Source: a virus (lineage: Duplodnaviria > Heunggongvirae > Uroviricota > Caudoviricetes). From it: a stretch of DNA of 40,045 bases. The notes below the pieces were generated by a model. That model did no database searches, had not been told where the DNA came from, and saw only the letters and a program-made list of their open reading frames with translations. Shown one piece after another: positions 11,661 through 36,312 of this stretch. Position 1 is the first letter of the stretch; each line of letters begins with the position of its first letter. Where the stretch lies: IMG/VR virus record IMGVR_UViG_2778261504_000023, positions 1-40,045 of that record, one strand, 5' to 3'. Made by a program: the position numbers and the translations under genes.

Positions 11661-12254
11661 ATGCCTGCTGAACCTAAAACCTATAAACGCAAATCAACGC
11701 AATTTAAGCCACTAACAGCAATGCAGGAGGCTTATTGCCAGTCATACATCAAAACGCCTGAAAACCAGACTCAGGCAGCGATTAACGCAGGATTCTCCCC
11801 AAATACAGCGGCAGTTAAAGCCAGTGTCATGATGCGCGATGAACGCATTCAAAAACGGATTGCCGAGTTGATGGAGGAGCGCAACAAACGAATGCGCGTC
11901 AGTGCTGATTATGTGCTGAGGCGCCTGGTGGAAATAGACCAGATGGACGTGATCGATATCCTTAACGACGATGGGAGCCTTAAGCCCATCCGCGAGTGGC
12001 CGAAAATCTGGCGCACTACGCTTAGCGGCTTTGATCTGTCATCGACCATCATGAACATGAACGAGGATTCGATAGAGACAATCCTCAAAAAAATTAAATG
12101 GCCTGACAAGGTGAAGAACCTCGAACTGATTGGTAAGCACGTCGACGTCAACGCATTCAAAGAACGCCTGGATGTTAATGTGAATGTGACAATTGCTGAT
12201 CGCATAGCGGCAGCCAGGAAGCGACTCAAAGAACGTCAGGATGGTAATCAGTGA
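11661..12254 (+). CDS. Terminase small subunit (P27-family type)
   Basis: 197 aa from ATG 11661; N-terminal region MPAEPKTYKRK...LTAMQEAYCQSYIKTPENQTQAAINAGFSP typical of terminase small subunits; stop overlaps terL start. Confidence 0.7.
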   Translation: MPAEPKTYKRKSTQFKPLTAMQEAYCQSYIKTPENQTQAAINAGFSPNTAAVKASVMMRDERIQKRIAELMEERNKRMRVSADYVLRRLVEIDQMDVIDILNDDGSLKPIREWPKIWRTTLSGFDLSSTIMNMNEDSIETILKKIKWPDKVKNLELIGKHVDVNAFKERLDVNVNVTIADRIAAARKRLKERQDGNQ

Positions 12255-33684: not shown

Positions 33685-36312
33685 ATGACGGTCTCAACCG
33701 AAGTTGACCACAACGAATACACAGGTAACGGCGTTACGACATCATTTCCTTACACCTTTAGGATTTTCAATAAATCGGATCTGGTAGTCCAGGTTGTAGA
33801 CCTGAACGATAACATCACTGTTCTGACGCTAGATACTGACTACACAGTAACCGGCGCAGGTGGGTATGTAGGTGGTAATGTAATACTGGCAACAGCTCTT
33901 GCTAATGGTTACCAGATTTCCATATCACGTGAATTGCCGGTTACGCAGGAAACGGATCTCCGTAACCAGGGTAAGTTCTTTGCTGAGGTGCATGAGGATG
34001 CGCTTGATAAGTTGACAATGTTGATTCAGCAGGTTCGTAGTTGGTTTAGCCTGGCGCTACGTAAGCCGTCATTTGCTGCTAACTATTACGACGCAATGGA
34101 CAACTATATTCGTAATCTTCGTGCCCCATCCAGGCCGAAAGACGCAGCAACGAAAGATTATGTTGATATTCTTTCTGGTGCCAGCCTAAGCAGAAGCTTG
34201 AGAGTACCTGAATCGTTTATAAATGAGTTACCTGATGCGGATGGGAGAAAGAATAAAACACTGAGTTTTGATAATTCTGGATCACCGCTTCTTCTTGATC
34301 CTGAAAGTAGTGGGTTATGGGGATATTCCCTTATTGATTCGTTTCAGGATGGTGCTTCAATAACAACTAGATTTCAGGCACTTCACTGGAAACGTCCTGA
34401 TGGAAATGGCGAGTACTACCGTTGGGATGGATCTTTACCAAAAGATGTTCCTGAGAATTCAACCCCTGAATCAACAGGTGGGGTTTCCCTTGGTGCCTGG
34501 GTATCTGTAGGGGATGCATCGTTGCGGAGCGACCTGATTAGTCAAGAGACAGATAAAGGCTCCTCAATAGTTACATATACCCCTAAATTTAATGATGCCG
34601 TCTCGATGTCGGTATCTGAAAAACTTTCTGTAGATTTGGTGACACTTTCAGACTACGGATTTAAAGTTGGCAACACCGGTGCTCAGAACAAAGCTGCATT
34701 TCAGGCTGCCATTGACGATGCAGTCATGGCTACAGAGTTGGTAATACCACCGGGGGAGTATATCTGCGATCCTGGTGTTACTATCGGGAATTCAAACATC
34801 ATCCGCATCCGCGGTGCGGGGATGTATCAAACAGTAATTTTTACTGCGGGTGAGGCGGACCCATTAATCACCCAGGCGGCGGGTAAAATAGTAACGTTCT
34901 GTGAGTTTATTGATTTTGGCTTGAATGGTAACTATAAAGCGAACACTCTTCTTAACCTGACAGAAGCTAACCACATAAAAATAATCAGGGTGCAGTTTGC
35001 CAACACCATTGGCAATGCACTTGTTCTTAATGGATATTCGAATGATATCGAAGGCTGCCGATTCATGGAGAATAATGGCAACGCTGTTACTTTGGGTGGC
35101 GTGTTAAACAATACGAACTTCGTGAACAATAGGGTGTATGGTAACAACGTTGGCGGTTTGATTCTCCATCCGTCTTATGACGAGGGTGGTTTAAGTGTCA
35201 GAATTCAGGGGAATGACTTTGAACTGAATAAATCATTCGGGTTAATGGCTTACGGCATTAAAGGATTAAACATTATTGATAATTACTGGGAGCGCAACGG
35301 GGAAAACGGATTTAATTATCCGGACATCGGTGGTGTTACCGTTAAAGCCGATTTGCATCTAATTGCTAACAGCTATTCTATAACCCCAAATGCCGTGAAG
35401 GCTAATGACGTGGTTCGTGTTTGCGGCAACCATCAGACCGCGTTTGGGTACGGTAACACTCTGGGGAATCAGGACGCTTTTGTGTTCACCAACTACGCAA
35501 AAAATCTTTGCGTGGAGCATAATGAGATGCTCGACCCGTCTAAAAACAACGCCCTGATAAGCGTATACAACAGCCATTACGTAACTATCGTCACTGATGA
35601 AGTGCATATCCGAGGAAATAGCCGTAATGACATTGGTTTTATCGGTGCTGCGCAGGATGTTTACGACCACATCAGATGGGGGCATCTGATTCGCAACTTT
35701 AACGCGCCGAGACCAATAAACCTGTTAGAAAATAGCATGTTGTCATGGTTCCGATTTGCGGGGTCCACAGGTTCTTTATTGAAAACAACAAATTATTTTA
35801 ACAACAACTACTCATTTTCCGTAACGGACGGTGACTCTGTATGGGCTACCACGATTGACCTTTCATTACGGCCCGAGTTAAAGGATAAGTATATTTGGTT
35901 CGGTGCTTGGGTAAACGACCAGGGTGCTTCCGCAAAATTACTTTTTGGCATCAACAGCAAATACTCTGACGACCTAACTGTAGTAGCCGGGAGTGGCTCA
36001 TGGAAATTTGTAAGTTGCTGCACTTACGTAGGGCCAGGGGATACCGTTATCAGGGCTACTATCCAAAAAATAGGCTCAGGAGCCGATGTTCTTATAAACT
36101 CCCCCGTAATAGCGGAACTAGGTGTCTCCTATACGGACGTACAGTCGAAACCTACCGTATTCCGTGCGCCATCAGTGCCAACTACCGGGGCGTGGAATGT
36201 TGGAGAGCGTGTTATCAATAGCACACCTGCTTCAGGACAACCAAAGGCATGGACATGCAATATTCCAGGCGGGCCCGGGGTTTGCAGCTTCCTTTCTGAG
36301 GGGAATTATTAA
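33685..36312 (+). CDS. Tail fibre / tailspike with T7-type N-terminal virion-binding domain and parallel beta-helix (depolymerase-like) central domain
   Basis: 875 aa; N-terminus Y.GNGVTTSFPYTF...DL.V.V.....LTLDTDYTV resembles podoviral tail fibre N-terminal domain; central Asn/Gly-rich repeats (NNTNFVNNRVYGNNVGG, IQGNDFELNKSFG) typical of right-handed beta-helix. Confidence 0.7.
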   Translation: MTVSTEVDHNEYTGNGVTTSFPYTFRIFNKSDLVVQVVDLNDNITVLTLDTDYTVTGAGGYVGGNVILATALANGYQISISRELPVTQETDLRNQGKFFAEVHEDALDKLTMLIQQVRSWFSLALRKPSFAANYYDAMDNYIRNLRAPSRPKDAATKDYVDILSGASLSRSLRVPESFINELPDADGRKNKTLSFDNSGSPLLLDPESSGLWGYSLIDSFQDGASITTRFQALHWKRPDGNGEYYRWDGSLPKDVPENSTPESTGGVSLGAWVSVGDASLRSDLISQETDKGSSIVTYTPKFNDAVSMSVSEKLSVDLVTLSDYGFKVGNTGAQNKAAFQAAIDDAVMATELVIPPGEYICDPGVTIGNSNIIRIRGAGMYQTVIFTAGEADPLITQAAGKIVTFCEFIDFGLNGNYKANTLLNLTEANHIKIIRVQFANTIGNALVLNGYSNDIEGCRFMENNGNAVTLGGVLNNTNFVNNRVYGNNVGGLILHPSYDEGGLSVRIQGNDFELNKSFGLMAYGIKGLNIIDNYWERNGENGFNYPDIGGVTVKADLHLIANSYSITPNAVKANDVVRVCGNHQTAFGYGNTLGNQDAFVFTNYAKNLCVEHNEMLDPSKNNALISVYNSHYVTIVTDEVHIRGNSRNDIGFIGAAQDVYDHIRWGHLIRNFNAPRPINLLENSMLSWFRFAGSTGSLLKTTNYFNNNYSFSVTDGDSVWATTIDLSLRPELKDKYIWFGAWVNDQGASAKLLFGINSKYSDDLTVVAGSGSWKFVSCCTYVGPGDTVIRATIQKIGSGADVLINSPVIAELGVSYTDVQSKPTVFRAPSVPTTGAWNVGERVINSTPASGQPKAWTCNIPGGPGVCSFLSEGNY

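Follow-up and report, generated by a model that had tools for sequence, protein, structure and literature searches.

A Probable phiV10-Like Uetakevirus Prophage Inserted at the guaA 3' End of an Escherichia Chromosome

The 40,045-nucleotide stretch of DNA analyzed here (positions 1 to 40,045 of IMG/VR virus record IMGVR_UViG_2778261504_000023, referred to below as the window) carries, between a tyrosine integrase gene at its left edge and two host genes at its right end, genes for recombination, lysogeny, and replication, a packaging and virion module with a tailspike gene (positions 11661 to 36312), and a lysis cassette (Table 1). The whole stretch is very probably a prophage related to phiV10 and belonging to the epsilon15 group, genus Uetakevirus, inserted in the chromosome of an Escherichia host at the guaA 3' terminus. 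Such elements, which combine a temperate life style with a T7-style short-tailed virion, are already known as the phiV10/epsilon15 type of Escherichia coli prophages. A preliminary description, made from the DNA letters alone, had read the interval from 11661 to 36312 as a podovirus-type virion module placed in a lambdoid temperate backbone. What appeared to be an unusual hybrid belongs to a prophage type that is common and has been well studied, and as a discovery the outcome is mostly a clean negative.

Relatives, Extent, and Integration Site

The interval from 11661 to 36312 is 97.3% identical at the DNA level, over 85% of its length, to phiV10 and the O157 typing phages 9 and 10, and is comparably near phiv142-3, PAS61, ZX5, and HEMP4 (97.9% identity over 78% for vB_EcoP_ZX5); positions 1 to 11660 are 95.8 to 97% identical to the same phages over 78 to 81%. 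The phiV10 group comprises, in addition to phiV10 itself, the O157 typing phages 9 and 10, phiv142-3, vB_EcoP_PAS61, vB_EcoP_ZX5, and TL-2011b. Comparison of the prophage (positions 1 to 38885) with phiV10 gave 84% coverage and an intergenomic similarity of 0.81, and in the gene-by-gene tblastn comparison all virion proteins of phiV10 showed 96 to 100% amino acid (aa) identity to those in the window. The customary yardstick of the International Committee on Taxonomy of Viruses for membership in a genus is a whole-genome nucleotide similarity of ~70% or more to a member, and the similarity to phiV10 lies above this value. The database records of phiV10 (NC_007804) and epsilon15 both place these phages in Uetakevirus.

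The gene order of the prophage, established from the map of its open reading frames (ORFs) against the annotated phiV10 and epsilon15 records and from the tblastn position of each gene, is that of Uetakevirus: terS, TerL, portal, capsid, tail, internal proteins, tailspike, conversion, lysis, attachment site, integrase, recombination, repressor, and replication. The PF20911 capsid protein is accompanied, as is typical of the genus, by gp10-type and Bbp16-type accessory proteins, and the tailspike combines a conserved N-terminal anchor with an exchangeable receptor-binding domain. The comparison with epsilon15-like phages recommended in the preliminary description was the right one.

The element is a prophage, and the window ends in host DNA: the yfgI and yfgH genes, which are matched in 5,422 of the 5,426 complete E. 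coli genomes, lie at its right end, beyond attR. As the stretch begins at the integrase start codon, attL lies just beyond its left edge. The particles of phage vB_EcoP_ZX5, as imaged, have a 60-nm head and a 15-nm tail, and integration of this phage at the guaA 3' end has been reported (PMC9782041); cryo-electron microscopy structures of capsids or tails are available for the relatives epsilon15, BPP-1, and Carin-1 (PDB; PMC13317679, PMC12391199). Temperate podoviruses of this kind had been taken for uncommon. However, 494 of the 5,426 complete E. coli genomes (9%) contain a 61-base segment of the nozzle gene in a form with at least one mismatch, so that prophages of this kind are common, and the genus is well described (PMC9782041, PMC10408124), its prophages having been systematically mined for O-antigen-specific tailspikes (PMC10408124).

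Table 1. Genes, RNAs, and sequence elements in the window, in order of position
Feature	Position	Strand	Evidence or context
Tyrosine integrase	1-1251	+	Pfam Arm-DNA-bind_3, Phage_int_M, Phage_integrase; 99% aa identity to phiV10
RecT	2797-3678	-	PF03837
RecE-like PDDEXK exonuclease	3675-4496	-	PF12684
Predicted operator	5031		Adjoins repressor gene
Prophage repressor, two-HTH (helix-turn-helix) SPC32H Rep type	5103-5687	-	PDB 5d50_A 'Repressor', E = 3.5e-42, full length; HTH_3 only
Predicted operators	5743, 5791		Between repressor gene and cro-position ORF
cro-position ORF, 76 aa	5842-6072	+ (divergent from repressor)	Position only
Replication initiator, DnaT/HTH_36 domains	6439-7230	+	PF17948, PF13730; PHROG 1032 replication initiation protein
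Lambda-P family helicase loader	7212-8012	+	PF06992, E = 1e-56
Predicted operators	8050, 8112		After P gene
Accessory (ea/nin-like) gene patch	8690-11090	+	Lone stretch at 90-98% DNA identity with lambdoid phages
115-aa 'transcriptional regulator', epsilon15 gp49 homologue	11192-11539	+	PHROG 536, E = 5.5e-54; 81% aa identity to gp49
Palindrome GTGACATGTCAC	11536-11547		Overlaps stop codon of 115-aa regulator gene, upstream of terS
Predicted operators	11626, 11644		Immediately 5' of terS ATG
Small terminase subunit, terS	11661-12254	+	PF03592, E = 1.5e-29; MPAEPK start as in epsilon15
Large terminase subunit, TerL, 491 aa	12251-13726	+	PHROG 2, E = 9e-53; 99% aa identity to phiV10, 95% to epsilon15
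Palindrome GTGACATGTCAC	13801-13812		Just 3' of TerL terminator
tRNA-Arg (anticodon TCT)	14387-14463	-	ARAGORN; Rfam tRNA, 73 bits
Predicted operator	14786		Ahead of portal operon
Portal (T7 gp8 type), 556 aa	15112-16782	+	PF12236, E = 5.8e-187; PDB 8ck0_A Carin-1 portal, E = 4e-177
Bbp19-like small protein	16788-17084	+	PF25181, E = 2.9e-17
Scaffold-like protein, 233 aa	17081-17782	+	Between portal and capsid genes, T7 gp9 position
Major capsid protein (HK97 fold, epsilon15 gp7/BPP-1 type), 330 aa	17791-18783	+	PF20911, E = 2e-149
Bbp16-type capsid cement/decoration protein, 145 aa	18835-19272	+	PF21190, E = 4.7e-47
epsilon15 gp10-type capsid 'staple' protein, 109 aa	19663-19992	+	PF21628, E = 1.2e-51; PDB 3j40_N gp10, E = 1e-19
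Head-to-tail adaptor (T7 gp11 position), 202 aa	19989-20597	+	PDB 8ck1_E 'Connector Protein', E = 2e-24
Tail nozzle gene, 823 codons	20597-23070	+	PDB 8ck1_A 'Tail Nozzle', E = 8e-204; amber at 22910-22912
Two small internal virion proteins, 154 and 181 aa	23068-24077	+	PHROG 308, 418 'internal virion protein'; T7 gp13/gp14 positions
Three large internal/ejection proteins, 837, 600, and 824 aa	24077-30869	+	PHROG 992, 1145, 684; 98-99% aa identity to phiV10
Two accessory genes	31065-32093	98 aa +, 210 aa -	PHROG 3075, 1349 (unknown function); bracketed by terminators and operator
Palindrome GTGACATGTCAC	31358-31369		Just 5' of terminator closing virion operon
Predicted operator	32153		Ahead of 210-aa minus-strand gene
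Bro-N antirepressor ORF, 279 aa	32233-33072	-	PF02498; PHROG 130 anti-repressor Ant
C4 antisense RNA	32968-33054	-	Rfam RF01695, 79.5 bits
isrK-like Hfq-binding RNA	33073-33149	-	Rfam RF01394, 74.7 bits
Predicted operator	33186		Ahead of antirepressor cassette; overlaps promoter-like site 33228-33200
Predicted operator	33566		Ahead of tailspike gene
Tailspike, 875 aa	33685-36312	+	PF18668 (Tail_spike_N), PF13229; T7-type anchor, beta-helix receptor-binding domain
gtrA, 131 aa	36449-36844	-	PF04138, E = 4.5e-13
Predicted operator	36841		Ahead of holin gene
Lysis cassette: two holins, GH19 endolysin, Rz-like spanin	36901-38756	+	PF16931, PF05449, PF00182, PF10721; 88-95% aa identity to phiV10
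attR core	38865-38885 (about)		phiV10 attP homology ends at ~38,882; sequence is guaA 3' end (...IEWE stop)
Host genes yfgI (DUF5384) and yfgH (glycine-zipper lipoprotein)	38975-40045	-	Beyond attR

Packaging, Head, and Tail Genes

The genes listed in the preliminary description for this interval are all present at the place and of the size given there, and matches to profiles and solved structures support their assignments; its central claim, a podovirus-type virion encoded in a temperate genome, is borne out. The major capsid protein matches those of BPP-1 (PDB 3j4u_A, E = 1e-126) and epsilon15 (3j40_A, E = 9e-84) as well as 8cjz_Y (E = 4e-86), and the 145-aa cement protein matches PDB entries 3j4u_H ('cementing protein') and 8cjz_B ('Capsid Decoration Protein'). 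The adaptor is a member of PHROG 394 (tail protein, E = 4e-87) and also matches PHROG 9239 (tail tubular protein), in agreement with the epsilon15 record, where gp11 is annotated with an HHpred match to the T7 tail tubular protein A. The nozzle, described as about 800 aa long, is indeed encoded by a frame of 823 codons, but a TAG codon at 22910-22912 leaves only 771 aa open (see below). Among the small internal virion proteins, the 181-aa one matches PF24072 (T7_gp14) above the cutoff (E = 2.5e-7), and the 154-aa one has a subthreshold match to PF11090 (T7 Gp13; E = 0.088). The 837-aa protein, the first of the three large internal proteins, carries a lytic transglycosylase domain (PHROG 7182, 'tail injection transglycosylase'; endolysin matches PDB 9vvp_L and 7q47_A at residues ~249 to 398).

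The profile searches of the proteins encoded in 11661-36312, which included the check for siphovirus and myovirus tail genes that the preliminary description had set as its own refutation, gave no ORF with a tape measure, sheath, or tube protein as its best match. The reported lack of a phage RNA polymerase stands as well: no domain of this kind was found with Pfam in any of the eight ORFs of at least 400 aa, several of which were scanned at E values of up to 10. The virion parts, as assigned by homology, point to a T7-style short-tailed particle.

The start of terS is likely the ATG at 11661 and not the TTG at 11580 with which the mechanically called ORF begins. A separate observation concerns an 83-aa ORF at 14206-14457 on the plus strand, annotated as hypothetical in phiV10, which overlaps the tRNA-Arg(TCT) gene in antisense over ~70 bases, has no epsilon15 counterpart, and may not be a real gene. 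The megablast matches of 11661-36312 included 64 records of Synechococcus phages at 80 to 90% identity, which probably reflect the tRNA gene or some other short conserved sequence.

Tailspike, Conversion Module, and Inserted Genes

The T7-type N-terminal domain attributed to the tail fibre in the preliminary description is recognizable, at the superfamily level, in the predicted structure of the tailspike and in the profiles of its homologues. The tailspike itself matches PF03906 with an E value of only 0.19; however, 31 of the 33 anchor homologues (55 to 84% identity) match this family at E values of 0.01 or less, the best being 1e-9. The anchor occupies residues 1 to ~160, extending to ~210, and corresponds to residues 1 to 132 of Dpo31 (PDB 28lx/8ck1, E = 1.5e-24). 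Its AlphaFold model (pLDDT, the predicted local distance difference test score, ~85 for residues 8 to 82) matched the Carin-1 tailspike anchor in the Foldseek search (1e-10) and also the T7 gp17 N-terminal domain entries 7ey9, 7boz, and 8dsp (1e-5 to 4e-4).

The first 160 residues are 92% identical to the phiV10 tailspike and 87% identical to that of epsilon15, whereas the remainder is unrelated to either; from residue ~280, the protein closely resembles the tail protein of a Lederbergvirus, Escherichia phage N7 (89.8% aa identity). Such exchange between anchors and receptor domains has already been described for Uetakevirus and Lederbergvirus (PMC10408124, PMC11522302). A receptor domain common to two temperate podovirus genera is relevant to O-antigen typing and phage engineering.

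Behind the tailspike gene (36313-36844), gtrA is the sole remnant of a gtrABC-type operon for O-antigen glucosylation (serotype conversion); phiV10 carries oac, an O-acetyltransferase gene, in its place. A related prophage at the same chromosomal site of strain E2865 has gtrA along with a truncated glycosyltransferase pseudogene. The segment 31065-33564 of the virion interval is not virion DNA, as it is taken up by two accessory genes and the minus-strand antirepressor cassette. The accessory genes at 31065-32093 had no tblastn match in phiV10 or epsilon15, and neither they nor the other small ORFs had a Pfam, NCBIfam, or PADLOC defence match.

The Early Region and the Extent of Mosaicism

Judging by sequence comparison, the backbone of this prophage is lambdoid only in part: the lambda-P family loader and a 2.4-kb accessory patch are all that it has in common with lambdoid phages. 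In the search with positions 1260 to 11200, this patch (~8690-11090) was common to Shiga toxin (Stx) phages, ST104, HK97, HK022, mEp043, and P1/P7. The P half of the 'O/P' replication pair in the preliminary description is sound, but the initiator carries DnaT and HTH_36 domains, and its matches to 'O-like' PHROGs are weak (E = 6e-18). Neither does the 'CI/Cro' switch hold: the repressor is not of the CI type, as it matches the SPC32H repressor over its full length and has no S24 cleavage domain according to Pfam, and the divergent ORF, which had no PDB sequence match, owes the name Cro to its position. The lysis genes are located after the tail genes. No member of the Q or N families was found among the ORFs scanned from the replication genes to terS, with ORFs 9999-10250 and 11094-11378 falling outside the Pfam scan.

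The early region also encodes an MT-A70 methylase (Pfam). The genes for RecT and RecE are separate in the window and in epsilon15 but fused in the annotation of phiV10. The 115-aa regulator encoded just upstream of terS has no Pfam or NCBIfam match and is a candidate late regulator.

The mosaicism announced in the preliminary description is real but local. As a statement about a chimera it does not hold, since the whole genome is collinear with phiV10 and the layout is a constant of the genus. Exchange has affected the patch at ~8690-11090, the tailspike receptor domain, the conversion module, the inserted genes at 31065-32093, and, relative to epsilon15, the capsid-shell cassette. In this last case (17791-19992, encoding the major capsid protein, the Bbp16-like, a 114-aa, and the gp10-like proteins), aa identities to epsilon15 are 36 to 43% against 81 to 88% for the flanking portal, adaptor, and nozzle, and the major capsid protein scores 427 bits with Bordetella phage BPP-1 and 285 bits with epsilon15 gp7. 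Such a pattern points to a cassette exchange inside the virion module.

Predicted Repressor Operators, Antirepressor Cassette, and a Palindrome at Operon Boundaries

The inverted repeat TTACC-N5-GGTAA, with at most one mismatch, occurs in 12 copies in the window, compared to 0.53 expected. The longer form, ATTACC-N5-GGTAAT, is annotated in the epsilon15 record as repressor binding sites (protein_bind), and phiV10 and epsilon15 both carry copies of the motif at syntenic sites. What the preliminary description called the 'shared promoter motif' of the late genes was most likely this repeat, which is better taken as a putative operator than as a promoter element. A second motif, CATATRTGGTT, lies upstream of the portal, tailspike, and holin genes (5 copies versus 1.4 expected); 3 of 100 shuffled sequences reached 5 copies, and this motif, whose frequency exceeds chance only weakly, is not relied on here.

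The isrK-like and C4 RNAs are encoded immediately ahead of the Bro-N ORF, with an overlap at its 5' end, an arrangement resembling the secondary immunity cassette immI of P1; the true start of the Bro-N protein is probably downstream of C4.

Another repeat, the perfect 12-bp palindrome GTGACATGTCAC, is present in 3 copies in the window (0.06 expected), with a one-mismatch copy at 16840, and occurs at positions 2262 and 19493 of phiV10 and 2142, 19517, and 39612 of epsilon15. Three syntenic places in the window and epsilon15, and two of these in phiV10, have it unchanged, while the flanks diverge; in phiV10 the remaining copy, which the ends of the linear record divide, deviates by one mismatch. 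Every copy adjoins a rho-independent terminator at an operon boundary. Neither the operator string nor GTGACATGTCAC was found in the searchable literature. That GTGACATGTCAC is an undescribed late-gene control element is a doubtful proposition, to be held with little confidence. In that case, it could be the putative binding site of the gp49-like regulator, modulating termination or read-through together with the repressor operators, and late-gene control in this group would differ from that by lambda Q and by T7 RNA polymerase.

An Amber Codon in the Nozzle Gene

Codon 772 of the nozzle gene is TAG (G-to-T) where phiV10 has GAG (Glu), so that the open frame, 20597-22912, ends after 771 aa and 52 residues are lost. 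The lost residues are 98% identical to those of phiV10 and 92% identical to those of epsilon15, and they align with the conserved C terminus of the Carin-1 nozzle (...IRQ.DPLPL..L..IPR...GG). Among the 494 complete E. coli genomes with the segment, the exact amber-bearing 61-mer was never found. However, an identical 771-aa product has been called on four other public contigs, including GCA_002510325.1, and the amber codon is therefore an inherited allele and not a read error. Since the 52 codons past it are still 98% identical to those of phiV10, the lesion must be recent and single. On balance, the truncated nozzle is likely to be nonfunctional and the prophage, as predicted from this one codon, defective for particle formation. 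The allele offers a natural test of whether the conserved nozzle C terminus is essential.

Weighing the Alternatives

The T7 order of the virion genes, the T7-type portal, the gp14-like protein, and the fibre anchor, next to lambda P, RecT, and ea/nin-type genes in the early region and a 2.4-kb patch 90 to 98% identical to Stx, HK97, and P22-like phages, could suggest a recent chimera, produced by recombination of a lytic T7-like virion cassette into a lambda-like prophage. However, because collinearity with phiV10 (similarity of 0.81) and, at the protein level, with epsilon15 extends over the entire layout and takes in the early genes, the combination of these virion and early genes must be old and genus-wide. 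The virion proteins match those of T7 at the family or fold level only, with no close identity, the G+C content is even across the junction (0.48 to 0.52 over 8 to 31 kb), and the sharing of DNA with lambdoid phages is limited to accessory genes, all of which makes a recent chimera very improbable. Even less credible, to the point of being negligible, is a misread long-tailed (siphovirus or myovirus) prophage. Two weak, secondary matches could be cited in its favor, namely, that of the 837-aa protein to PHROG 2276 ('tape measure', E = 2.5e-32, residues 211 to 447 of the 862-aa query ORF 24002-26590) and that of the 145-aa protein to PHROG 9522 ('major tail protein', E = 2e-4). The former spans the transglycosylase domain only, in a protein whose best matches are PHROG 992 (head/internal, E = 0) and 'tail injection transglycosylase', and the latter protein is a Bbp16 cement protein (E = 5e-47; PDB 3j4u_H). 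Furthermore, no sheath, tube, baseplate, or tail-completion genes were found, the adaptor and the nozzle match a solved podovirus tail, and relatives have been imaged with 15-nm tails (PMC9782041).

The question of whether the element is a decaying cryptic remnant and not a phage that has only recently lost its function deserves more attention, given the nonsense codon in the essential nozzle gene, the reduction of the conversion operon to gtrA, and the truncated nozzle product on several public contigs, which marks an inherited allele. Despite this, decay is unlikely, even if it is the most plausible of the three alternatives. Apart from the nozzle, all compared ORFs align over their full length with phiV10 or epsilon15 homologues; the virion genes retain 96 to 100% aa identity to phiV10, and the RecT/RecE split matches epsilon15; the conservation of the 52 codons past the amber indicates a recent single lesion; the integrase, repressor, operators, lysis genes, and attR are intact; and gtr remnants are found in relatives, too.

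The assignment to a phiV10-like Uetakevirus prophage with a T7-style virion also has to accommodate several observations that weigh against it or against parts of it. At the DNA level, similarity of the prophage (1-38885) to epsilon15 is only 0.37, although epsilon15 is filed in the same genus. The short-tailed morphology is assumed by analogy with imaged relatives, the element itself being known from its genes alone. Repressor-operator binding, induction through the antirepressor, and late promoters are all predicted from sequence; a scan for sigma-70 consensus promoters found sites no commoner than in shuffled sequence, and no late promoter could be named. The amber codon could be tolerated, owing to a suppressor host or a dispensable nozzle C terminus, which leaves 'defective' a matter of probability. 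Finally, the 233-aa protein is labeled 'protease' or 'peptidase' in public annotation, nearly all of the named close homologues listed share this label, and its fold was not identified by NCBIfam, PDB-sequence profile search, or Foldseek against PDB, with no solved scaffold matched. Thus, it is its position, composition, and all-helical model that suggest a scaffold role.

The protease label nevertheless appears to be unsupported. In the Pfam scan, neither this protein nor any of 44 diverse homologues, drawn from 13,562 cluster representatives, matched a protease family, and Foldseek against BFVD retrieved family members only, with the propagated label 'putative protease'. In the AlphaFold2 model, residues 100 to 213 are all-helical (pLDDT of 89 to 97) and residues 16 to 85 are disordered, and the N terminus is acidic and proline-rich. 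A weak match of a single homologue to the T7 capsid assembly protein (E = 0.008) is too weak to be used. On the strength of the position, the helical model, and the lack of a protease family, the scaffold call of the preliminary description is sided with here as an inference. The protein is probably a mislabeled scaffold whose misannotation has been propagated, which is a practical point for database annotation.

A Model of the Prophage Life Cycle

The SPC32H-type two-HTH repressor would hold lysogeny. Because the operators of the immunity region recur ahead of late operons, namely, those of the terS, portal, antirepressor, tailspike, and lysis genes, direct repression of these operons is probable. 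The Bro-N antirepressor, itself under the control of the P1 immI-like C4 antisense RNA, would probably bring about induction. For related Salmonella phages, antirepressor-mediated induction has been reported (reviewed in PMC7380047). Since there is no phage RNA polymerase, the host RNA polymerase would be responsible for all transcription, including that of the late operons once repression is lifted.

In the assembly pathway suggested by the virion genes, the terminase subunits would drive DNA through a T7-type dodecameric portal into a shell in which the HK97-fold capsid protein assembles with the separate helical scaffold-like protein and is reinforced by the Bbp16-type and gp10-type decoration proteins. 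The adaptor ring and the nozzle would close the portal, and the five internal proteins, one of them with the transglycosylase domain, would form a stored core that, once ejected, spans the periplasm. Trimeric tailspikes, docked by their T7 gp17-type N-terminal anchors, would bind a surface polysaccharide, most likely the O antigen. Without suppression, the amber-bearing prophage probably makes no infectious particles.

Comparison with Known Phages

Lambdoid phages (lambda, P22, HK97, and Stx phages) share with this prophage the succession of divergent repressor and cro-position genes, replication genes, and an accessory region, as well as the lambda-P family loader, RecT-type recombination, ea/nin-type patches at 90 to 98% DNA identity, and a tyrosine integrase gene adjoining the attachment site. 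The prophage differs from them in its repressor, which is not of the CI type (no S24), in its initiator, which has DnaT and HTH_36 domains, in having no N or Q homologue among the ORFs scanned, in the placement of lysis genes after the tail genes and not ahead of the terminase, and in having operators scattered across the late region.

With T7 and other Autographivirales, the prophage shares the order of portal, scaffold, capsid, adaptor, nozzle, internal proteins, and fibre, the families of the portal (PF12236), gp14 (PF24072), and fibre anchor (PF03906, along with its fold), and the ejected internal core. Unlike T7, it encodes no single-subunit RNA polymerase, phage DNA polymerase, primase, or helicase and is temperate, with an integrase and a repressor; it has a beta-helix tailspike instead of a fibre and extra capsid decoration proteins, and its transglycosylase sits in the first large internal protein.

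The Salmonella phage epsilon15, the type member, has the same architecture, the same operator sequence at syntenic sites, and the same lysis cassette and integrase; aa identities are 95% for TerL, 81% for the portal, 84% for the adaptor, 88% for the nozzle, and 87% for the tailspike anchor. Its capsid shell is far more divergent (major capsid protein, 43%; cement protein, 36%; gp10, 43%), its large internal proteins are 28 to 59% identical to those in the window, and it has other replication genes, without P, and other serotype conversion genes. In phiV10, the whole gene order, the integrase (99%), the repressor (99%), P (100%), the operators, the tRNA-Arg, and the guaA 3' attachment region are all the same. 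Relative to it, the window has a replaced tailspike receptor domain (the match is confined to the first ~160 aa), different ea/nin-type genes at 8971-11201, separate RecT and RecE genes, and the nozzle amber; its Bro-N/C4 cassette is longer, and the accessory gene pair at 31065-32093 is additional. The nearest relative with a solved portal-tail complex is the Cobetia marina phage Carin-1 (PDB 8cjz, 8ck0, and 8ck1), which has a marine host and unrelated distal tailspike domains but is homologous to the prophage in its portal, nozzle, adaptor, capsid, and decoration proteins and in the D1 anchor of its tailspike (E = 1.5e-24).

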